DNA of 64,000 bases from NCBI GenBank assembly GCA_937952285.1, contig CALFZE010000130.1, positions 18,282 through 82,281 on the forward strand. Reading direction: 5' to 3'. The notes below the pieces were generated by a model. The model ran no database searches and was not told the origin of the DNA. It saw only the letters and a program-made list of their open reading frames with translations. The DNA comes from an uncultured Bacteriovoracaceae bacterium (GTDB lineage Bacteria > Bdellovibrionota > UBA2428). A program made the position numbers and the translations under genes. Positions within the stretch are counted from its first letter, which is position 1. Every line of letters begins with the position of its first letter. Shown one piece after another: positions 9,076 to 64,000 of this stretch.

Positions 9076-9552
9076 TCAAGCGAAGAGGCCGCGCAGCCGC
9101 TCGAGCCCTTCGCGGTCGGCCTCGCCGAAATCGTCGAGGCGCTCGCTGTCGACGTCGAGGACGAAGACGACCTCGCCCGTCGGCGCGAAGAAAGGCACGA
9201 CGATCTCCGAGCGCGACGCCGAGCTGCAGGCGATGTGGCCCGGAAACTTGTCGACGTCGGGCACGACGATCGTGCGGGCCTCGCTCCACGCCGCCCCGCA
9301 CACGCCGCGGCCCCGCGCGATCCGCGAACAAGCGAGCGGCCCCTGGAAGGGACCGAGCACGAGCTCATCGCCCACGACGCGGTAAAAGCCCACCCACAGG
9401 AAAGCGAAGCTCTCTTTGAGCGCCGCCGCGACGTTCGCCATCTTCGCGACGAGATCCGGCTCGTCCGCGACGACCGCGCGGATCTGCGGCCAGAGCTCGG
9501 CGTAGGTCTCGGCGCGCGAGAGTCCCGCGCGAAGGCTCAGCGACTCGCTCAC
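9076..9552 (-). CDS. GAF-domain free methionine-(R)-sulfoxide reductase (fRMsr/MsrC-like)
   Basis: 158 aa with the fRMsr-like GAF core (VDKFPGHIACSSASRSEIVVP). The ATG overlaps the cysK stop (4-nt ATGA). Confidence 0.75.
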   Translation of the reverse strand: MSESLSLRAGLSRAETYAELWPQIRAVVADEPDLVAKMANVAAALKESFAFLWVGFYRVVGDELVLGPFQGPLACSRIARGRGVCGAAWSEARTIVVPDVDKFPGHIACSSASRSEIVVPFFAPTGEVVFVLDVDSERLDDFGEADREGLERLRGLFA

Positions 9553-10553
9553 GTCGCGCCCAGCGGAATCGTCGCGAGGATCTTGTCGTCGACGGGCTGG
9601 GCCGTGAGCGATTGCGCTTTCTGGCGCTCCGCCTCGGCGAGCAGGGTCGAAAGGTAGCGTTCCGTGTAGCTCGGCAAGATCGCGACGATCGTCTTGCCCT
9701 TCATTTCGGGGCGACGGGCGAGCTCGCGCGCGGCGAAGAGGGCCGCGCCCGTCGAGATACCGGCGGGGAGACCTTCCGTGCGGAGGACTTCCTTCGCCGT
9801 GGCGAGGGCCTGCTCGGAACTGACCGAGAGAACGCCGTCCACGACCGAGCGATCGAAGTTCTTCGGCACGAAGCCCGCGCCGATGCCTTGGATCTTATGC
9901 GGTGCGGGCTTGCCGCCCGCGAGCACGGGGGATTCCGTCGGCTCGACCGCCCAGACCTGAATCCCCGCCCGCCGCGCCTTGAAGACGCGGCCGCAGCCCG
10001 TGATCGTGCCGCCCGTGCCGACGCCCGCGACGAAGGCGTCGAAGTCGCCGCCCGTCTCGTTCCAGATCTCCTCGGCCGTCGTGCGCACGTGCACCTCGGG
10101 GTTCGAGGCGTTCTCGAACTGCGAAGGCTGGAAGGCCGATGCGTCGGCGCGCGCGATCTCGAGGGACTTGGCGATGGCCCCGCGCATGCCGAGCGGCCCC
10201 GGCGTCAGCACGAGCTCCGCGCCGAGGAGCAGCAGCAGCGTGCGCCGCTCGAGGCTCGCCGTCTCGGGCATCGTGAGCGTGAGGCGATAGCCCTTGGCCG
10301 CGCACACGAAAGCGAGCGCGATCCCCGTGTTGCCGCTCGTCGGCTCAACGACGTGGGCGCCGGGCTTGAGACGCCCCGCCCGTTCCGCGTCTTCGATCAT
10401 CGCGAGGCCGATGCGGTCCTTGACCGAACCGAGGGGGTTGAAGAACTCGGCCTTGCCGAGGATCGTCGCGCCCGTGTCGCGCCCGAAGTGCTGAAAGCGA
10501 ACGAGGGGAGTCTTGCCGATGAGACCGAGGATCGTCGGGATTTCCGTCTTCAT
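9549..10553 (-). CDS. cysK: Cysteine synthase A (O-acetylserine sulfhydrylase, PLP-dependent)
   Basis: 334 aa with the PLP lysine motif (GSVKDR), the SGNTG loop, a GxGTGGT glycine-rich loop, and a typical CysK N-terminus (GKTPLVRF). Confidence 0.9.
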   Translation of the reverse strand: MKTEIPTILGLIGKTPLVRFQHFGRDTGATILGKAEFFNPLGSVKDRIGLAMIEDAERAGRLKPGAHVVEPTSGNTGIALAFVCAAKGYRLTLTMPETASLERRTLLLLLGAELVLTPGPLGMRGAIAKSLEIARADASAFQPSQFENASNPEVHVRTTAEEIWNETGGDFDAFVAGVGTGGTITGCGRVFKARRAGIQVWAVEPTESPVLAGGKPAPHKIQGIGAGFVPKNFDRSVVDGVLSVSSEQALATAKEVLRTEGLPAGISTGAALFAARELARRPEMKGKTIVAILPSYTERYLSTLLAEAERQKAQSLTAQPVDDKILATIPLGAT

Positions 10554-10600: not shown

Positions 10601-12667
10601 TCAATCTTCCGTGGCCTTCCAAGTTTCGAGCGCCTTAAGGGCGTGCTCGCGGCAAAGCGCGATCTCCTGGTCCGTGATGAGTCCGTTGTGGCCCCGGATC
10701 GCGGCGAGCTTCGCCCCGTGTTTCTTGGCGATGTCGTAGATCTCGATGACCTTGCGGTGGTTGATGTTCTTCGACAGCGTGAAGGATTCGAAGCGTCCGT
10801 CGAGGGCGAGCAAGGCCGTCTCGGCCAGGCAGGCGTAGACGGCGTCGTCGGGCGTGCCGATGTCGCAGTCCAGCTTGACGTCGCCGGGCAACTCGATTTC
10901 GCCCGACTCCACGACGAGCACGTCGGGCCGCTTGACGGCGTCCTCCTCGCTCACGTCGAGGGGTCGACTGACGTCGCAGATCACGCAACCCGGTTTCACC
11001 GCCATGATGTCGAGGACCTTCTTGTCGTAGGAGCTCGTCGAAGTCACGATGAGGTCGCAGCTGCGGGCCGCGGCGTTGGGGCTCGTGACGAGCGTGACTT
11101 TGCAGCGGGGGACGAGCTCCTGGATCTCGGAACGGATTTCGAGCAGCTTGTCCGCGCGGCGCCCCACGAGCACGAGCTCCTCGAAGACGTAGGCGAGGAC
11201 CTTGGCGCAAGCGCCGCCGATCGAGCCCGTCGCGCCGATGATCATCGCCTTGCCGCGCACCTTCGACCCGAGCTTGAACGACGGCAGGAAGCCGAGCTTC
11301 GCGCAGGCGTCGCGCGCCGCCCACAGCGTGGCGGAGGCCGAGAGACTGTTGCCCGTCGTGAGCGGGATCGGGCTGCGCTTGGCCACGGTGATGCCGCCGT
11401 CGCCCACGATCTTGGTGTAGGCGCCGAGGCCGATGATGTCGGCGCCGCGCTCGGAGGCCTTCACGCAGACCTTCGTGAGCACGTCGTACATCTTCTCGGG
11501 CGCTTCCTTCATCATGACCCGCGGCGTCTGGTAGACGATGAAAAAATCACCTTCGACTTCCTGGCCCGTCGCCTCGCTCCGCACGCCCGTGATCTTGCCG
11601 TAGAAACCCGGCGGGATCTTGCCCATGGCCGTCTCGATCTCGGACCCGAAGTTCTCGGCCATCCCCTTGAACGGCTTCAGGAAGGGAATACGGAAGAGCT
11701 GGCGGTAGCTGAGCGGGTGGATGACGAAGGCAAAGCGGCGCGCCTGCGGCTTCGCGGCGCCGTCGATCGCGATCTGGGGCTTGAGCCCGAAGCGGTCCAC
11801 GAACTCGAGGATGTCGTCTTCGCGCAAGGGTTCCCGTTCGGGTTTGAGGCACTGCAGGAGCCCTTCGATGATTCCGAACGAGAAGCGTTCCTGATCGCCT
11901 TCCATCGGGAGGCGCGGGGCGAAACTCACGACGCGCTGGACGCCGGCCTCGTGCAGCCCCTTGAGCACCCCGGGCGTGACGTAGTCGACGAGCAGGGTCT
12001 TGCCCTTGAGGTGATCGAAGCGGAAGCGCTCGAGGAGCGTCATCCGCGTCACGAAGATGTCGCACTTCTCGAAGTCGCCCAGGCCGATCCCGAGCAGGCT
12101 CTTGCGGGTGTGCCGCGGACGGATGTGGCGACCCAGGGGGATGAAGCGCGCGAAGGGCGTGACCCGGCGCAGATAGCTCTCGAGGCCGGGCAAGCTACGG
12201 ATCTCGGTCTTCGCGCCGACGTGCAGGTAGGGATCCAGGAAGACCATGCGCTCGGTCTGCTCGGAGAGCATTTGGGCGAGCCCCATCTCTAGCGCGCCCG
12301 AGTAGAAGCCGATGCGCTTCTTGCGGAAGAAAGCGGGGTCCTTGCGGATGAGCTCGCGCACCGCCCAGGGCAAGTAGGCCGAACGCAGGAGATCTCCCGT
12401 CACGACGATCGAGTGCCGCACGGAATCGAGGAGCGCCTGGGACTCGGGGTGGATCATGCGGCGCGACCCGATGCGCGTGCCGTGCTGGATGCCCTGCAAG
12501 CCGATGACGTCGGCCTTGCCGTCGAACTCGGCGATGAGGCTCCGCATGACGTCGATGTCGAAGTCGCAGCCGAAGTGGCTGACGTGGATGGATTCCCCCT
12601 CGAGCTTGACGTCGGCCTCGAAGTTCGAGGCGCTCGAAGTGAAGGAGATGTTCACGAGGCGTTTCAT
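10601..12667 (-). CDS. Two-domain protein: N-terminal ~340-aa uncharacterised domain fused to a C-terminal acyl-ACP-reductase (AAR)-like NAD(P)-binding domain
   Basis: The last 688 codons of the 1130-aa track ORF; the ATG at 12667-12665 was verified. The C-terminal domain aligns block by block with cyanobacterial AAR (TTGNSLSASATLWAARDAC, IIGATGSIGGACAKVL, CVICDVSRP, ACLAETALLALDGRF). The N-terminal half has no match I recognise. Confidence 0.7.
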   Translation of the reverse strand: MKRLVNISFTSSASNFEADVKLEGESIHVSHFGCDFDIDVMRSLIAEFDGKADVIGLQGIQHGTRIGSRRMIHPESQALLDSVRHSIVVTGDLLRSAYLPWAVRELIRKDPAFFRKKRIGFYSGALEMGLAQMLSEQTERMVFLDPYLHVGAKTEIRSLPGLESYLRRVTPFARFIPLGRHIRPRHTRKSLLGIGLGDFEKCDIFVTRMTLLERFRFDHLKGKTLLVDYVTPGVLKGLHEAGVQRVVSFAPRLPMEGDQERFSFGIIEGLLQCLKPEREPLREDDILEFVDRFGLKPQIAIDGAAKPQARRFAFVIHPLSYRQLFRIPFLKPFKGMAENFGSEIETAMGKIPPGFYGKITGVRSEATGQEVEGDFFIVYQTPRVMMKEAPEKMYDVLTKVCVKASERGADIIGLGAYTKIVGDGGITVAKRSPIPLTTGNSLSASATLWAARDACAKLGFLPSFKLGSKVRGKAMIIGATGSIGGACAKVLAYVFEELVLVGRRADKLLEIRSEIQELVPRCKVTLVTSPNAAARSCDLIVTSTSSYDKKVLDIMAVKPGCVICDVSRPLDVSEEDAVKRPDVLVVESGEIELPGDVKLDCDIGTPDDAVYACLAETALLALDGRFESFTLSKNINHRKVIEIYDIAKKHGAKLAAIRGHNGLITDQEIALCREHALKALETWKATED

Positions 12668-13725
12668 GCGCCACCCCCGGCGATCGTATCGAACTCGTCG
12701 CTTCTCACGAAACGATAGAAAGCTTCGGCGTAGTCGCCGAAAAGCGGAAGGGAAAGGTCGGGATAGTCCTCGCGCAGCGAGTGGTTCGCGAACTGCGCCT
12801 CGGAGTAGAGGTAGTGCTGGAGCGAAGCGGGGATGCCCAGGCGAGGCAGGAGCGCCGGCGGCACGACGCCGCGAGGGAGCGGCACGAGACGCGTGCGGTG
12901 CCCCAGCTCCTGGAAGGAACGCTCCAAGAACTCCGCCATCGGAAAGGCGGGACCGGAAAGGTGGTAGGTCCGCCAACGCCCTTCGAAGAAGGCCGGCTGC
13001 CGGGCGATGCGGGCAAGGACCGCGGCCACGGCGTCCACCGGCACGATGTGCAGGGGCGCCCCCGGATGGAAGGGCAGAGGCGTACGGCCGAAAACGGAGA
13101 GCGCGCGCCAAAGCGGCGCGTGGCGCTTCAGGCTCCGCAGCAAGTAGTAGGGTCCGTCGATCTTGTCGGTGCGGCCCGTGGCGGCGTCGCCGACCAGGAT
13201 GCCCAACCGGCAGACGTACTTGCGGACCTCGGTCTTCCAGGCGCCGACGAGGCCTTCGACGCGGAACTTCGTCGAGGCGTAGGGATTCGGGAAACCCTGC
13301 CCCACGTTGAACATGTTCTCGTGGAAGATCCCCCGGAAGTCCCCCGCCACGGCGATCGTGCTCGTCGACACGAAAGTCTCGAGCGAGGTGAGGCGATCGC
13401 AAAGGCCCAAGAGATTCTGCGTGCCCACGACGTTGTGGAGGTAGTTCTGCGAAGCGCCGATGCGCAGGTCGTAGCTGGCCGCCATGTGCAGGACGCCGCG
13501 AACCTCGGAGGCGAGCTCGTCGATGTGGTCCCGCTCGGTCAGCACGCCGAAGTCGCGCAGGTCGCCCGCGAGCAGCCGCACGTCCTTGCGATCGCCGTAG
13601 AGACGGCGCGCCTGCGCCATCGAGGCCGGGCGAACGACGAGGTAAAGGAGCCCCGGGTAACCTTCGAGGGATTCGAGGACGCGACGGCCCAGGAAGCCGC
13701 TCGCGCCGGTGATCAAGAGACTCAT
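12664..13725 (-). CDS. NAD-dependent reductase of the thioester-reductase / fatty-acyl-reductase (NAD_binding_4, extended SDR) type
   Basis: Starts MSLLITGASGFLGRRVLE (TGxxGFLG) and carries the YASTK catalytic dyad. A GGGGAAG RBS lies upstream. Its stop overlaps the downstream ATG as ATGA. Confidence 0.8.
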   Translation of the reverse strand: MSLLITGASGFLGRRVLESLEGYPGLLYLVVRPASMAQARRLYGDRKDVRLLAGDLRDFGVLTERDHIDELASEVRGVLHMAASYDLRIGASQNYLHNVVGTQNLLGLCDRLTSLETFVSTSTIAVAGDFRGIFHENMFNVGQGFPNPYASTKFRVEGLVGAWKTEVRKYVCRLGILVGDAATGRTDKIDGPYYLLRSLKRHAPLWRALSVFGRTPLPFHPGAPLHIVPVDAVAAVLARIARQPAFFEGRWRTYHLSGPAFPMAEFLERSFQELGHRTRLVPLPRGVVPPALLPRLGIPASLQHYLYSEAQFANHSLREDYPDLSLPLFGDYAEAFYRFVRSDEFDTIAGGGA

Positions 13726-14651
13726 AGTGCTTCCCCCAAAGGACTGAAGAGGCGGAGGCCTTTCGGCATGATCTCGATGTCGAAGCTCGAAGCTTCGCAA
13801 AGGAACTCGCCGTCGCCGAAGAACGGCAAGGTCTGGCCGTCGAGCACGTCGATGCGCACCCGGCGCGCTTCCGCCGTGAAGAACTCGGGATCGTTGCGCG
13901 GGTCGCGTCCGCGGCGGATGTCGAGGAGCCCCTTGAGGAATCCCAGGCGGTGGCGATGCCCGAAGCCTGCCACGTTGAAGGTTCCGTCGTCATTGCGCGT
14001 GCTCGGCGCGATCGCGAAGTTTCCGCCCAGCACGGGCTGGTTGTTGATCATGAGGATGGGCGTGCGGATCTCCGAGACGACGCCGTCGACGTCGATCCGG
14101 AACGGAATGCCCCGGCCGCCCGGGCCGAGCAGCTTAAGCACGACGCCCGCGGAATAGATGTTCGGGCCGGTCAGCTTCATGAAACGCTTGAAAAGGGGGG
14201 CCTGCGCGCGCCACTCGTTCACCTGGAGCGCGACCGAGGCGCCGAGCCCCAACCCGCCGTTCGTCGCCATGTAACGGCCGTTGATGCGGATAAGGTCGAT
14301 GCAACGCTCGTTGGAACGGCGCACGGCCTCGACGGCCCGCTCGATGCGACGGTCCAAGCCGATCTCGCGGGCGAGGTCGTTGGCCGTGCCGGCCGGCACG
14401 AGCAGCAAGGCAACGTTGGATCCCGCGAGGTCTTGGATGAGCGTGTTCGCCGTCCCGTCGCCACCGACCGCGACGATGGCGTCCACGCGGTCGCTCACGG
14501 CGCGCAGCAGCTCCTCGTGCAGGCGATCGAGCCCGTCCGGCGAAACGAATTCGAGCTCGCTGCGGAAGAGCTTACGCTTGAGCCCTTCCACGAGTTCGAC
14601 GCTTTCGCCCGACGAGGCGCGCGGATTCAGGAAAATTCTAATCTTCTGCAT
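13722..14651 (-). CDS. Lipid kinase of the diacylglycerol-kinase catalytic-domain family (YegS/DgkB-like)
   Basis: 309 aa with the AIVAVGGDGTANTL motif and a YegS-type C-terminal domain. Its stop overlaps the SDR ATG (ATGA). Confidence 0.8.
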   Translation of the reverse strand: MQKIRIFLNPRASSGESVELVEGLKRKLFRSELEFVSPDGLDRLHEELLRAVSDRVDAIVAVGGDGTANTLIQDLAGSNVALLLVPAGTANDLAREIGLDRRIERAVEAVRRSNERCIDLIRINGRYMATNGGLGLGASVALQVNEWRAQAPLFKRFMKLTGPNIYSAGVVLKLLGPGGRGIPFRIDVDGVVSEIRTPILMINNQPVLGGNFAIAPSTRNDDGTFNVAGFGHRHRLGFLKGLLDIRRGRDPRNDPEFFTAEARRVRIDVLDGQTLPFFGDGEFLCEASSFDIEIMPKGLRLFSPLGEAL

Positions 14652-14755: not shown

Positions 14756-15150
14756 CTACTTCGGGGCGCGCAAACGCAGGCTCAGATTGATCGCGAGCTT
14801 CCGCAGGATCTGGATGTGGGCCTCGGGGTTGCGTCCCACGAAGTCGTTCATACGGGCGTGGGGGATCAGGAGGACCTTGGCATCATTGCCCGCCACGGTC
14901 GTCGCGCTGGCCGGCTGTCCGTCGAGCCACGACATCTCGCCCAGCATGTCGCCCGATTGGAGGCGAAAACCCGAGGGCTGAACGACGACCTCGCCCTCCA
15001 TCACGATGCAGATGGCGTCGTTGCGACGCCCTGCCTCGGTGAGGTGCGTTCCCGTCGGGAGCTTGGCGATCGAGGAAAGCGAAAGCAGCTCCGTGCTCTC
15101 GTCCGGCGTCAGTTCGTTCAGGAGCCAAGTCTGCAGCAGCAACTGTCTCA
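14756..15150 (-). CDS. Stand-alone cyclic-nucleotide-binding (cNMP) domain protein
   Basis: The C-terminal 131 codons of the track ORF form a CAP-effector-like beta-roll (IVMEGEVVV...GDMLGEMSWLDGQPASATTVAGNDAKVLLI). A GTG at 15150 is preceded by GGAAGGGGGA. The upstream part of the track ORF looks like antisense junk. Confidence 0.5.
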
Positions 15151-15244
15151 CGGTGTCATATCCCCCTTCCCAGGATAATCGAATCGTCCCGACTGCGATA
15201 CGGGTCGCTGGCGTCCGGAGCGGAAGGGACGCATACTTAGAGCC

Positions 15245-16051
15245 ATGAAAACGCACCGCCTGCCCGTTTTGGCCCTCTTCGCGCTCACCCTGAACGGCCC
15301 GGCCTTGGCGCAGAAGGCGCCGAGCGCCGACGAGATCATGCAGAAGAGCGAAAGCGCGCGCCGCATTCCGCAGCTCAAGGCGGAGGGTCTCCTCGCCACG
15401 AGCGGCGACGGTGCCCCTTCCGACAAGACCTTCCTGTTCTCCCGCAAGCTGACCTCGGACGGCACGCGTTTCCGCACGCTCACCCGTTTCAAGACGCCGG
15501 CCACGGTCCGCGACCAGGCCATCCTCTTCCTCGAACGCGACAGCGACTCGAGCGACATCTTCATGTACCTGCCCAACTTCAAGAAGACCCGCCGGGTCGA
15601 GTCCCACGCCCAGAGCGGAAGCTTCATGGGCACGGCCTTCAGCTATTCCGACATCGCGAATCCCCACGCCGAGGACTACACGCACAAGCTGCTCAAGTCC
15701 GAGAAGTGCCCCGGCGGCGCGAACAACTGCTTCGTCGTCGAGTCGACCCCCCGCACCGCGGGCGTGAAGGAACGCACCGGCTACTCGAAGTCCGTCCAGT
15801 GGATCGATTCCGTGAGCTACCTTCCCGTCAAGGGCGAGTTCTACGACGCCAAGACCCAGAAGCTCCGCAAGCAGATGGTGTCGAGCGACATCCAAGCCGT
15901 CGGCGCGAAGAAGGCCCACTACCTCGCCCACCGCTCCGAGATCACGGATCTCACGAACGGCCGCAAGAGCCGCCTCGTGTTCTCGAAAGTCAACGTCGAC
16001 GAGAATCTCCGCGATAACCTCTTCACCCAGGCCGCCCTCGAGTCGCCCTGA
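15245..16051 (+). CDS. Periplasmic LolA-like protein (outer-membrane lipoprotein-sorting-protein family)
   Basis: Signal peptide followed by a 268-aa domain with the layout of LolA-like proteins. It is paralogous to the ORF at 40888-41670. Confidence 0.65.
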   Translation: MKTHRLPVLALFALTLNGPALAQKAPSADEIMQKSESARRIPQLKAEGLLATSGDGAPSDKTFLFSRKLTSDGTRFRTLTRFKTPATVRDQAILFLERDSDSSDIFMYLPNFKKTRRVESHAQSGSFMGTAFSYSDIANPHAEDYTHKLLKSEKCPGGANNCFVVESTPRTAGVKERTGYSKSVQWIDSVSYLPVKGEFYDAKTQKLRKQMVSSDIQAVGAKKAHYLAHRSEITDLTNGRKSRLVFSKVNVDENLRDNLFTQAALESP

Positions 16052-61109: not shown

Positions 61110-61808
61110 TTAGACTTCGTGCAGGAAGAGCTCCGACGCCAGACGCACGTGCGTCGAAGGCGCCGGCGCCTTCGCGGCGCGCCCCACGCCGAACACCATG
61201 ACGACGCGCGAAGCCCGCCCCAGCCCGAGCAAGCGCTTCACGCGCTTTTCGTCGAAGCCTTCCATCGGGCAGCTCGCGTAACCCTGATCGACGACCGAGA
61301 GCATGAAGTTTTCGCAGGCCAGGGCCGTCGTCTTCGTCACGACCTCGACGAGTTCCGCGCGCGTGGAGGGCCCGCGCGGCACGGGCCGCCAAAGCCCCAC
61401 GACGCCAAAGAAAATCCGTTTGAGCAAACCCGCCAAGCCGAAGGGATCTTGCCAATAGGCCGCCGGCACGACTTTGCGGTAGTAGTTCGTGAGGTAGGCC
61501 GGTACGGGGCCTTCGCTCGCGAGCTTTTCGAGCAGGAGAGCGCGGTTGCGGCGCCACGTGTCCGTCCGCGCAACGGCCACGACGAGTTCCGCGGCCGTGC
61601 GCGCGGCCGCCTGCGAGAAGCAAGCTTCGACCAGCTTAGCCTTCGAGGACGGCGTCCGGACCCAGTAGAATTCCCAAGGCTGCATGTTCGAGGAATTCGG
61701 CGCGAGCAGGGCGTCCTCGAGCGCCCGACGGATCACGGCCTCCGGAACGGCTTCCGACGCAAACTGACGAACGCTCCGGCGAGCGGCGAGGACGGCCTTG
61801 AATTCCAT
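61110..61808 (-). CDS. Nitroreductase-family protein
   Basis: N-terminal RRSVRQF FMN-binding motif and 232-aa length. Confidence 0.75.
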   Translation of the reverse strand: MEFKAVLAARRSVRQFASEAVPEAVIRRALEDALLAPNSSNMQPWEFYWVRTPSSKAKLVEACFSQAAARTAAELVVAVARTDTWRRNRALLLEKLASEGPVPAYLTNYYRKVVPAAYWQDPFGLAGLLKRIFFGVVGLWRPVPRGPSTRAELVEVVTKTTALACENFMLSVVDQGYASCPMEGFDEKRVKRLLGLGRASRVVMVFGVGRAAKAPAPSTHVRLASELFLHEV

Positions 61809-62409
61809 GCGACCTTTTTACGCCCCTTATCGCTTCGACGCACCCACGAAACGAAAGACGCACCCAGCCACATCTGTAACTTGCCCTTACATAAAAATCG
61901 GAGGCTCCAGGCATTCGCCCGCTCTCCGCACGAGAGGCATCAATGCGACGCCTCACTATCGTGAGCACGGCGAGTGGGAGGTCTACGACTATCTGCACGC
62001 AACTGATTGGCGCAAAGTAGAACGCCGCCTTCATCGAGCCTTTTCCAGCAGCAAGAAGAAATCAAATTCAGCAAATGAACTCTATTCGGCTTCTCTTCTG
62101 GAAGCGCAAAACGCACTTCACAGCGCGCCCCTCGATCTACAAGTTGGCCGGGAGAAACTCGAACGCTTCAGACAAGACAGAGCACTGAAGTCCTACTTGA
62201 ACGAGTCGCTTCTTACGACTTGCCTATACGGACACCTGGACCCACAGGGAACATGGGCACTGAAGCTATTTCCCCCTACGGCGGGCGGACGCCAGTTCAC
62301 ACTAAGCATTGGCTCACACGAAGTCGTCTTCTCGGCAAACACTTCGGCGAATCATCATTGCCTCGTAATGGATGAACTCGCGCGCGATATTCCCGAATTA
62401 AAGAGGTGA
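61798..62409 (+). CDS. T5orf172 (GIY-YIG-like) domain protein; start uncertain
   Basis: PYIKIGGSRHSPALRTRGINA...EWEVYDYLHATDWRKVERRLHRAF fits the T5orf172/Mug113 pattern (KIGxT...R...E...H..F). The gene lies in a roughly 48% GC segment. Confidence 0.45.
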   Translation: MNSMRPFYAPYRFDAPTKRKTHPATSVTCPYIKIGGSRHSPALRTRGINATPHYREHGEWEVYDYLHATDWRKVERRLHRAFSSSKKKSNSANELYSASLLEAQNALHSAPLDLQVGREKLERFRQDRALKSYLNESLLTTCLYGHLDPQGTWALKLFPPTAGGRQFTLSIGSHEVVFSANTSANHHCLVMDELARDIPELKR

Positions 62410-62694
62410 CTGGAGAAGCACCGAGGCGGCTGCCAAAGGGCTGCCTATAGAACAGCCGGGGATCGAGCCCTCTCGGTCCATTTCAACGGCGATCTTTCCG
62501 ACGCTCAGCGCTTTCTTAAGGTTCGCGGAGTACGACGGGCGCTAGTCGCCTACTGGGCAGATTAACTCGCCAACTTACGAGAACGAGCGGAACAAAGCCC
62601 GTACGCGAGGTATTACGACCACAATGCTGTCATGGACCTCGTGGACTATTAGCGCGCCTATTCTCCATAGGCCCGCAACCCTAGCCTTGCGCTA

Positions 62695-63114
62695 TTAGTC
62701 GCACCGATACGCTGAGGTGAAAAACTGGGGCGACCCCTGAGGAGCTGGCTGTTGGTGAATAAAGTACGTCGGAAAGAATTTCGATCCGGGGATTAGAGTC
62801 CAAAAGAAGACGTCTCCAGAATCTAGCTTCTCGTAAAATGACCTATCACCAACTTTCGTCAGTTTTGACTGGCGACCAGAATTCTTAAAAAGCGCATGAT
62901 CCTTGGTGACGGCAATTGAGACTACTTCGGCGTCCTTTGGAGTGCGCACCTCACCCTCCATCCGCCCAGTTTTTAGTTCGGTCGCGGCTCCCATACGATG
63001 AGACAAATGCGACATTGTTTCCAGCTTGCAGGAGTAGATCCTATCCTGAGCTTGGGCCGAATGCGTGACTGCAAAAATCCAAACACTCAATCCAACCAAC
63101 AAGGTTCTCTTCAT
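62695..63114 (-). CDS. Small secreted hypothetical protein in the low-GC island
   Basis: Internal start MKRTLLVGLSVWIFAVTHSAQAQ (signal peptide). Confidence 0.4.
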   Translation of the reverse strand: MKRTLLVGLSVWIFAVTHSAQAQDRIYSCKLETMSHLSHRMGAATELKTGRMEGEVRTPKDAEVVSIAVTKDHALFKNSGRQSKLTKVGDRSFYEKLDSGDVFFWTLIPGSKFFPTYFIHQQPAPQGSPQFFTSAYRCD

Positions 63115-63221
63115 TCCCTCAAATGTAACACGAGCCGAGAACCCGTGGGTAGACATGCGGGAGGCGCGCCAAACAATCCCGAACGAGCATCTCACGCCGA
63201 CGGCGAGCTGCGAGCTCGGAA

Positions 63222-63983
63222 CTAAATGCCTCGACCCTGTACCCTTATCCGAAAGTCCTCAGGCGTTGTCCTAATCCAAACTGAAGCAAAAAGGTGTCCC
63301 ACATCCGGGCCTTGGCCTGGGTGTGGCGGAAAAGGTTGAATCTGCCCATTCAAGACTTTTCGGATACCGATATGCCTCTGCCCGCTGAGATGAAGAGCAA
63401 TCTCAGCGTCCTCAACCCGTATCGGACGCCCATACCCAGCCCACCGAACAAATGGAATTGATAAATAGACCCCCTGATACGTCGACAGAGACCCTGAGCT
63501 CTTAGCAAAGATCTCGCTACTCTCTTTGGCCACAATTTTTGCATAAAACTCAGCTCTCTTGCCGGGCTCAAGAATACGAAACTGATAGAGCTCGACTAGA
63601 GTGAACTCCACCGTCTCCCCATTTCCATTCGGGACCAGCCTAGCAAGCACGGTGTCACGGACAGGGAGCGCAATGGTGTACGCGCTAAAAGGGCAGTTTT
63701 CTTCAGTCCATTCACCCGAGAATCGCACTTTTACAACCCCACTTAGAGTCTTTATGCGATCCTGCTCAATGGCCAACCGGCTAGTGAGTTCCTGTATTCG
63801 AATGGCCTGACTAAGATTCTCATTCTTCAAGAGCAAAGAATCATTCTGAATACTGAGCACCTGATTCTCAGAGGCTGCAACCTTCAAACTCTGTTCATTG
63901 GACTCAATTCGACCAAGATGCGCAGCCCAAACCGCCAAAGCCGCGACGAAAAAAGAAACAGACTTTAATGCCTTTCGGGCCAA
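63222..63983 (-). CDS. Membrane-anchored hypothetical protein with a coiled-coil segment (low-GC island)
   Basis: Signal/anchor MARKALKSVSFFVAALAVWAA followed by heptad-rich LSIQNDSLLLKNENLSQAIRIQELTSRLAIEQDRIKTL. Confidence 0.45.
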   Translation of the reverse strand: MARKALKSVSFFVAALAVWAAHLGRIESNEQSLKVAASENQVLSIQNDSLLLKNENLSQAIRIQELTSRLAIEQDRIKTLSGVVKVRFSGEWTEENCPFSAYTIALPVRDTVLARLVPNGNGETVEFTLVELYQFRILEPGKRAEFYAKIVAKESSEIFAKSSGSLSTYQGVYLSIPFVRWAGYGRPIRVEDAEIALHLSGQRHIGIRKVLNGQIQPFPPHPGQGPDVGHLFASVWIRTTPEDFRIRVQGRGI

Positions 63984-64000
63984 TGGCTGACTTTCAAAAA

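Follow-up and report, generated by a model that had tools for sequence, protein, structure and literature searches.

A two-module acyl-thioester reductase-like protein in a conserved lipid-type operon of Bdellovibrionota

Reductases of AAR type (AAR, acyl-ACP reductase; ACP, acyl carrier protein) are valued for the fatty aldehydes that they yield, and so far three settings have been described for them: alkane synthesis in cyanobacteria, the prodigiosin and tambjamine pathways, and the termini of nonribosomal peptide synthetases (NRPS). They are represented here by AAR itself, by PigE's N-terminal domain (PigE-N) and by the terminal amidation domain (TAD), respectively. We investigated a stretch of 64,000 nucleotides (hereafter the window) from an uncultured Bacteriovoracaceae bacterium (Bdellovibrionota; GCA_937952285.1, contig CALFZE010000130.1, positions 18,282 to 82,281), in which a 688-aa protein carries a reductase module of this kind (C-module) behind a second module of similar predicted fold (N-module). 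This two-module form, found in hundreds of species and tied to a lipid kinase and a fatty acyl reductase (FAR)-type reductase, represents a fourth setting. We consider it probable, with moderate confidence, that the protein is an enzyme of the AAR/PigE-N/TAD superfamily in which a working C-terminal reductase is joined to an N-terminal partner module, and that it belongs to a lipid operon.

The gene and its C-terminal reductase module

The initial annotation had described a 688-aa open reading frame (ORF) in which an unassigned N-terminal part is fused to an AAR-like reductase, and both the ORF and this architecture are correct. With its stop codon the ORF occupies positions 10601-12667 on the minus strand, as do all features of the protein given below, and the product begins with MKRLVNISF. 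The whole gene is supported as a two-module protein by 968 homologues, the best 120 of which are nearly all full-length (about 680-740 aa). A mechanical ORF listing carries the frame up to 13993 (1130 aa), since the sequence has a high G+C content (66%) and is poor in stops. The true start is at 12667, because it shares 4 nt (ATGA; GCATGAAA) with the stop of the upstream gene and because M1 and K2 are almost invariant among 56 homologues; a G-rich run resembling a Shine-Dalgarno sequence (GGGGGTGG) precedes it. Antisense and out-of-frame ORFs over the gene, such as 10643-12292 on the plus strand (549 aa), find no homology support and were discarded as high-GC artefacts.

The C-module (residues 310-688; 10604-11740) is predicted from hidden Markov model and PDB-sequence matches to be an NADPH-dependent acyl-thioester reductase of the AAR/PigE-N type. 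Its best NCBIfam match is PigE (NF053554; E 1.2e-47, 162.8 bits), with residues 311-677 aligned to positions 1-358 of 837, followed by the AAR equivalog TIGR04058 (E 2.3e-15, 56.7 bits, where the cutoff is 449.7). Searches of PDB sequences gave the same order, both for the single sequence with phmmer (PigE entry 4ppm, E 2.6e-27; AAR 6jzq, E 7.9e-11) and for a profile of 57 family sequences with identity down to 40% (6.4e-38 and 6.7e-14), the set from which the residue conservation given below for fused proteins is taken. The similarity to AAR noticed initially is therefore significant, while the PigE N-domain is the closer relative. As the AAR-like part begins around residue 310, the N-terminal part has about 303 aa and not the 340 first estimated.

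All the residues expected of a working reductase are present, and TTG 437-439, G478, G481, G484, D565, R568, P569, C613 and E616 are invariant in the 57 sequences. TTG 437-439 (11351-11359) is the junction motif adjoining the catalytic cysteine, and its role has been described for TAD (bioRxiv 10.1101/2024.10.28.620694). GATGSIG 478-484 (11216-11236), the dinucleotide-binding loop, aligns with 162-GATGDIG-168 of AAR, as the initial annotation had proposed. R503-R504 (11156-11161) follow strand beta2; R503 aligns with R189 and K507 with R193 of AAR, the two residues that hold the 2'-phosphate of NADPH (PMC7089970), implying NADPH rather than NADH as the cofactor of the C-module.

The conserved loop CVICDVSRP (561-569; 10961-10987) does align with CVLIDGGYP of AAR, but it had been taken for the catalytic-cysteine region, and by this alignment it is instead the equivalent of the D-D-S-G-cisPro loop of TAD, which holds the nicotinamide ribose (bioRxiv 10.1101/2024.10.28.620694). 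The predicted acyl-accepting cysteine is C613 (10829-10831) in VYACLAE, aligned with C294 of AAR (FACFAE). Catalytic roles have been reported for C294 of AAR and C296 of PigE (PMC7089970, PMC8341465). With significant similarity, in sequence as well as in structure, extending over the N-terminal domain (NTD) and the Rossmann domain, with the TTG motif at their junction and a cysteine at a helix start, the C-module is placed in the AAR/PigE-N/TAD superfamily, and it looks catalytically competent.

An AAR of the cyanobacterial type working in alkane synthesis, a TAD-like amidation or a reverse, acylating aldehyde dehydrogenase could also be proposed, given the significant similarity to both AAR and TAD and the conserved cysteine. 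We regard all three as highly improbable. The Cys294 equivalent and the GATGxIG loop of AAR are present, but the score falls far under the TIGR04058 cutoff, and no gene resembling aldehyde-deformylating oxygenase (ADO), the partner of AAR, was found among the genes called in the window within about 4 kb upstream and 6 kb downstream of the fusion, which are all otherwise assigned, or among the annotated recurrent neighbour families of 80 related loci (DUF3419, PPDK_N and Formyl_trans_N; two further families, F5 and F8, have no Pfam match). The C-module is nearer to PigE than to AAR. The low score, the extra module and the lack of an ADO gene nearby indicate that it should not be considered an AAR orthologue, so that a role in alkane synthesis does not follow. 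As for TAD, no carrier or NRPS domain is present, and the place of the NAD-selecting aspartate at the end of beta2 is taken by G-R503-R504, within the NADPH-type Arg/Lys pocket. The sequence is compatible with the reverse reaction.

The N-terminal module and its stand-alone relatives

The N-module (residues 1-303; 11759-12667) had been said to match nothing, which holds at the sequence level: no Pfam family was found at E<=10 and no NCBIfam family at E<=1, and the matches of the family profile to PDB sequences (E<=10) were confined to the C-module. The predicted structure tells otherwise. It was modelled without templates, from an alignment queried with the N-module alone and hence free of C-module columns, and reached a pLDDT (per-residue confidence) of 89.3 and a predicted template modelling score (pTM) of 0.86. 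In a Foldseek search of this model against 350,542 chains, TAD ranked first (E 5e-7, TM-score 0.53) and AAR third (E 1.2e-5, TM-score 0.49). To our knowledge, these are the only solved representatives of the superfamily that contains the C-module. The modelled N-module shares their two-lobed topology, an NTD followed by a Rossmann-like lobe; it is thus not a new fold carrying an unrelated activity. The initial annotation had allowed that this region might be simply a second Rossmann domain of a known two-domain dehydrogenase, and the result comes close to this, since we find a complete second AAR-fold module, although no known two-domain dehydrogenase is involved.

In the full-length model the secondary-structure elements of both halves correspond one to one. 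The modules are separated by the linker AAKPQA (residues 304-309; 11741-11758), a low-confidence stretch in which residues 304-306 are the only ones of the protein with pLDDT below 50, and the pTM is 0.61 for the full-length model against 0.86 for the N-module alone. Comparison of the N-half and C-half profiles with hhalign, made with 57 and then 190 sequences, was not significant (P 0.12-0.31) and gives no sequence-level proof of duplication; neither hhalign nor the profile search of PDB sequences (E<=10) revealed significant similarity of the N-module to AAR, PigE-N or TAD members. The single alignment returned for the larger set is nevertheless colinear over 244 columns and keeps the functional elements in register: the TG motif, the Rossmann beta1 loop, the CD(I/L)(F/I)V strand, the D-x-x-x-P loop and the Glu-containing helix. 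The segments paired (N-module and C-module, respectively) are VVTG91 and LTTG439, LPWAVR and TLWAAR, RIGFYSGALEMG and MIIGATGSIGGA, CDIFVT and CDLIVT, LLVD228YVTP and VICD565VSRP, and FSFGIIE268G and VYAC613LAE616T.

What the N-module retains is the fold, the junction glycine, the aspartate at the end of beta2, the D-x-x-x-P loop and the glutamate after the cysteine position. G91 (12395-12397), the invariant glycine of a (T/D)G junction motif and counterpart of TTG439, and D145 (12233-12235), an invariant aspartate ending strand beta2 in the Rossmann-like lobe, are each found in 57 of 57 fused and 50 of 50 stand-alone sequences. We infer that D145 occupies the position of Asp2102 of TAD, which selects NAD (bioRxiv 10.1101/2024.10.28.620694). 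E268 (11864-11866), also invariant, is the counterpart of E616 in ACLAE, from its conservation and the hhalign register. Together with D49, D53 and D228, these three residues form a conserved acidic cleft.

The reductase active site, on the other hand, is missing. The GxGxxG dinucleotide loop is replaced by G/A-F-Y-S-G/A-x-L, here GFYSGAL 120-126 (12290-12310), which lies opposite GATGSIG in the colinear alignment and appears to be its degenerate counterpart (G or A at 120, F121 in 49/57, Y122 in 46/57, S123 in 50/57, G or A at 124). The position equivalent to the catalytic cysteine, residue 265, has Ser in 26, Ala in 20 and Gly in 5 of the 57 sequences. With both the dinucleotide loop and the cysteine nucleophile lost, the N-module, judged from its sequence, would be unable to serve as a thioester reductase that uses a cysteine and NAD(P)H.

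Relatives of the N-module are also found alone. Only 312 matches at E<=1e-3 were obtained by phmmer among 1.84 billion cluster representatives, and three kinds can be told apart among them: fusions of about 680-740 aa, proteins with a length near 300 aa, and pieces shorter than that. Genuine stand-alone members match residues 1-300 with E down to about 1e-18. One of them, P0159, is a complete gene with its own stop (locus L088, 3448-4350) and P0221 is another; further family loci are L091 (6001-6903) and L093 (6001-6912). With P0159 as the query, no fewer than 3,929 relatives were retrieved, and those with taxon labels come from metagenome-assembled genomes (MAGs) of Chloroflexota/Anaerolineae. 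The homology covers the full length of the module and includes signature residues, as D49, G50, D53, G59, G91, D145, G222, K223, P251 and E268 are common to fused and stand-alone members and position 228 is D or N. The neighborhoods of the stand-alone genes vary and contain no AAR-like gene. Several NCBI records name relatives of P0159 "quinate 5-dehydrogenase", a label for which no Pfam or NCBIfam support was found, including from Shikimate_dh_N and Shikimate_DH; by this name an orphan family has probably been misannotated.

Other matches of about 300-320 aa were not accepted as stand-alone or split genes, because they end in the linker or at contig ends and are fragments (P0146 stops at a contig end). 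The one case of apparently separate N and C genes that was examined, in a Bdellovibrionota MAG (L087, 4690-4760; protein P0123), was also rejected, being one in-frame stop within an otherwise fused frame. This stop (FAFIVHP*KSTDFF) falls exactly where the C-module starts and leads gene callers to give proteins of 316 aa and 370 aa; an error in sequencing, decay into a pseudogene and recoding are possible causes.

How the two modules came together may be considered from these data. The N-module could be a purely structural dead duplicate, in which a homodimeric ancestor was fused into a pseudo-dimer with subsequent decay of one half. Glutamyl-tRNA reductase (GluTR) is a dimer, and the shared fold, the one-to-one secondary structure and the loss of both P-loop and cysteine would fit such an origin. 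The NTD of TAD also dimerises (bioRxiv 10.1101/2024.10.28.620694). However, the N-module resembles the stand-alone proteins more closely than it does its own C-module, which leads us to reject a recent internal tandem duplication, and the invariant acidic residues common to fused and stand-alone members argue for a putative binding site that has been retained. We therefore find the dead duplicate improbable, and the protein is best seen as joining two AAR-fold families whose relationship is ancient, rather than as the product of a recent internal duplication.

The same relatives raise the possibility that the N-module is an active enzyme, supplying the thioester or consuming the aldehyde, with channelling between the modules as in PigE, AAR-ADO and GluTR-GSAM; channelling between an unknown activity and the reductase had been suggested in the initial annotation. 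Its family exists independently as proteins of about 300 aa in unrelated contexts, as expected for a function of its own; the polar residues D49, D53, D145, D228/N, K223 and E268, kept in both kinds of members, are located at the active-site cleft of the AAR fold; and all characterized relatives pass their aldehyde directly to a partner. Against this, no cofactor motif is recognisable and no nucleophile is conserved at the cysteine position, the geometry between the modules is not confidently predicted, and the operon already has a separate aldehyde- or thioester-reducing enzyme. This makes an active N-module, to our view, rather unlikely, although it is a serious rival reading. Most likely, the N-module would be an ancient paralogue with the same two-lobed fold acting as a built-in partner subunit, which binds a ligand, a carrier protein or the next enzyme of the pathway and holds or steers the reductase, and not inert filler. 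This role is suggested because cofactor and nucleophile motifs are absent while the cleft is conserved and a stand-alone family exists.

The operon and a possible pathway

The fusion is the last gene of a translationally coupled three-gene operon on the minus strand. The first gene encodes a 309-aa lipid kinase of the YegS/BmrU/DgkB type (DAGK_cat and YegS_C domains; 13722-14651) and the second a 353-aa extended short-chain dehydrogenase/reductase (SDR) with an NAD_binding_4 domain, of the "male sterility" or fatty-acyl/thioester-reductase type (12664-13725). Matches of the SDR include PF07993 (2.7e-25), the N-half of PRK07201 (4.9e-53) and the thioester-reductase domain (2.6e-19). Both junctions are ATGA stop/start overlaps of 4 nt, the stop of the kinase overlapping the SDR start and the stop of the SDR overlapping the start of the fusion.

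This arrangement is widely conserved. From a scan with one genome per species, a relative was found in 582 genomes, and the neighborhoods were counted in the best 80 loci. Of the 76 loci whose upstream sequence is long enough, 75 have kinase, SDR and fusion one after the other on the same strand, as judged by tblastn and ORF clustering; the sole exception has the order kinase-fusion-SDR (L059), and one SDR overlooked by tblastn was recovered through clustering (L081). The identical order of the trio is found on four independent contigs, including that of the cultured Oligoflexus tunisiensis, and Bacteriovorax stolpii is a further cultured carrier of the operon. The labels of the best 80 loci are Bacteriovoracaceae, Halobacteriovoraceae, Oligoflexales and Bdellovibrionales, with a few generic proteobacterial MAG labels. 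They cover at least three classes of Bdellovibrionota, with the taxonomy checked for two of them, Oligoflexia and Bacteriovoracia. One locus comes from a MAG labelled "Sulfitobacter sp." (L021; JBLHVN010000001.1, a contig of 2.0 Mb). Its gene order is that of the Halobacteriovorax loci L019, L020 and L037 and its coordinates equal those of L020, so the organism label is probably wrong, due to a mis-binned or mis-assigned MAG.

We suggest the following course for a two-module enzyme with a working C-terminal reductase. By homology (PMC7089970, PMC8341465), the acyl group of acyl-ACP or acyl-CoA would move onto C613, and NADPH bound at GATGSIG, R503 and K507 would deliver a hydride to the acyl-enzyme thioester, with release of the aldehyde. 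This would probably pass directly to a second enzyme or domain, a transfer of the kind seen in AAR-ADO, PigE and GluTR-GSAM. Being co-translated, the FAR-type SDR is the evident candidate to take it and reduce it to the alcohol, and the YegS-type kinase could phosphorylate the resulting hydroxyl to give a phosphorylated lipid intermediate. The product of such a pathway would feed a membrane or envelope lipid.

Several points weigh against this interpretation. The order aldehyde, alcohol, phosphate is guesswork from domain names alone, and genes for an ACP or for acyl activation do not accompany the operon consistently. The reductase activity of PigE could not be reconstituted from pure protein (PMC8341465). 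The full-length pTM of 0.61 does not establish how the modules pack, and the conservation of F121, Y122, S123 and the acidic cleft, together with the independent stand-alone relatives, means that the N-module could be a real enzyme. Finally, our literature searches found no paper on this family or operon. The C-module has a familiar kind of chemistry. Undescribed are the architecture of two modules, the orphan family of the N-module and a lipid-type operon that extends across the phylum.

In many relatives the trio is accompanied by further genes. A DUF3419 (BtaA-like) gene is linked to it in 67 of the 80 loci, a multi-pass membrane protein of about 317 aa without Pfam match (F5) in 57, present in 1-3 copies, a PPDK_N-type phosphotransferase in 51, a Formyl_trans_N protein in 32 and a 341-aa protein without Pfam match (F8) in 19. 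Examples of the extended cluster are L009 (9058-16050) and the upstream regions of L019 and L020, within loci ranging from L007 to L086. None of these five families was detected by tblastn in the 64-kb window. The combination suggests a pathway for a head-group-modified lipid. It also opens a possible, though doubtful, wider reading, in which the N-module represents a large uncharacterized enzyme or ligand-binding family (AAR-like fold, acidic cleft, no NAD loop) recruited onto a thioester reductase in Bdellovibrionota, where it builds a phylum-specific lipid with the kinase and the SDR. If so, the BtaA-like DUF3419, formyltransferase and PPDK-like genes would also join in most relatives, and candidate products would be a lipid built on a fatty-alcohol phosphate or a diol phosphate, or else a homoserine-ether lipid.

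Surroundings of the locus and comparison with known systems

The immediate neighbors in the window are not shared across relatives to the same extent. Downstream of the fusion, a 334-aa PALP cysteine-synthase-like enzyme and a 158-aa GAF-domain protein (9076-10553, minus strand) are lineage-specific; the PALP gene was rejected as a part of the system, being absent downstream in 80 of 80 related loci. Directly upstream of the kinase and on the same strand lies a gene for a 131-aa cyclic nucleotide-binding (cNMP-binding) protein (14756-15151, minus strand), which is not among the recurrent neighbors in other lineages. It is followed by a divergent gene for a lipoprotein-carrier-type protein similar to LolA (TP_0789-like/DUF1329; 15245-16051, plus strand), whose family (F12) recurs beside an ABC transporter at about 14 of the 80 loci, close to the operon. 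Scans of the 64-kb window for tRNA and tmRNA genes and for Rfam families (gathering threshold) gave no match. At its right end (61800-64000) the G+C content falls from about 0.65 to about 0.50-0.55, with unlike ORFs that include a signal-peptide-like protein of 166 aa and a protein of 253 aa, and the border of an island gained by horizontal transfer may lie here.

Taken as an enzyme with a working reductase and a built-in partner, the fusion points to an unrecognised envelope-lipid step in predators like Bdellovibrio and in the bacteria related to them. A first structural approach is also opened to the large orphan family to which the N-module's stand-alone relatives belong, and which probably bears a wrong name in the databases. 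We see in the fusion a good, testable lead for work on the lipids of Bdellovibrionota and on this mislabelled family, but no system of an altogether new category.

GluTR is similar in its Rossmann part only, over 165 aligned residues, and differs in its substrate, a tRNA ester, and in its domain composition. The stand-alone "quinate 5-dehydrogenase" proteins are homologous to the N-module and share with it the D-G-x-x-D, (T/D)G, beta2 Asp, G-K, Pro and Glu signatures; they differ in being unfused, in variable neighborhoods and with no linked AAR-like gene. The TAD of the CarI/VatR NRPS (PDB 9E4S/9E4U; bioRxiv 10.1101/2024.10.28.620694) is NAD-specific through an aspartate, follows a peptidyl carrier protein and possibly catalyzes an amidation, whereas the C-module appears to be of the NADPH type and is free of any carrier domain, and it is D145 of the N-module that sits at the NAD-selecting position. 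AAR (TIGR04058; PDB 6JZQ/6JZU/6JZY) is a single module of 341 aa which docks onto ADO for alkane synthesis in cyanobacteria; the fusion has an additional module of 303 aa and no ADO gene nearby, and belongs to Bdellovibrionota. PigE, of the 2-methyl-3-n-amyl-pyrrole (MAP) pathway of prodigiosin, is the best-scoring characterized relative of the C-module. The fusion is not itself a member of NF053554, since it matches just positions 1-358 of 837, scores 162.8 bits against a family cutoff of 850 and lacks an aminotransferase domain, and it lies in a lipid operon and not in a pigment cluster. Both have the GxGxxG loop, C296 of PigE corresponds to C613, and the NAD(P)H-dependent conversion of a thioester into an aldehyde would be common to the two. 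Both are also fused to a partner, which in PigE is a C-terminal class III aminotransferase dependent on pyridoxal phosphate (PLP), and here, with no PLP domain, an N-terminal module of the AAR fold.

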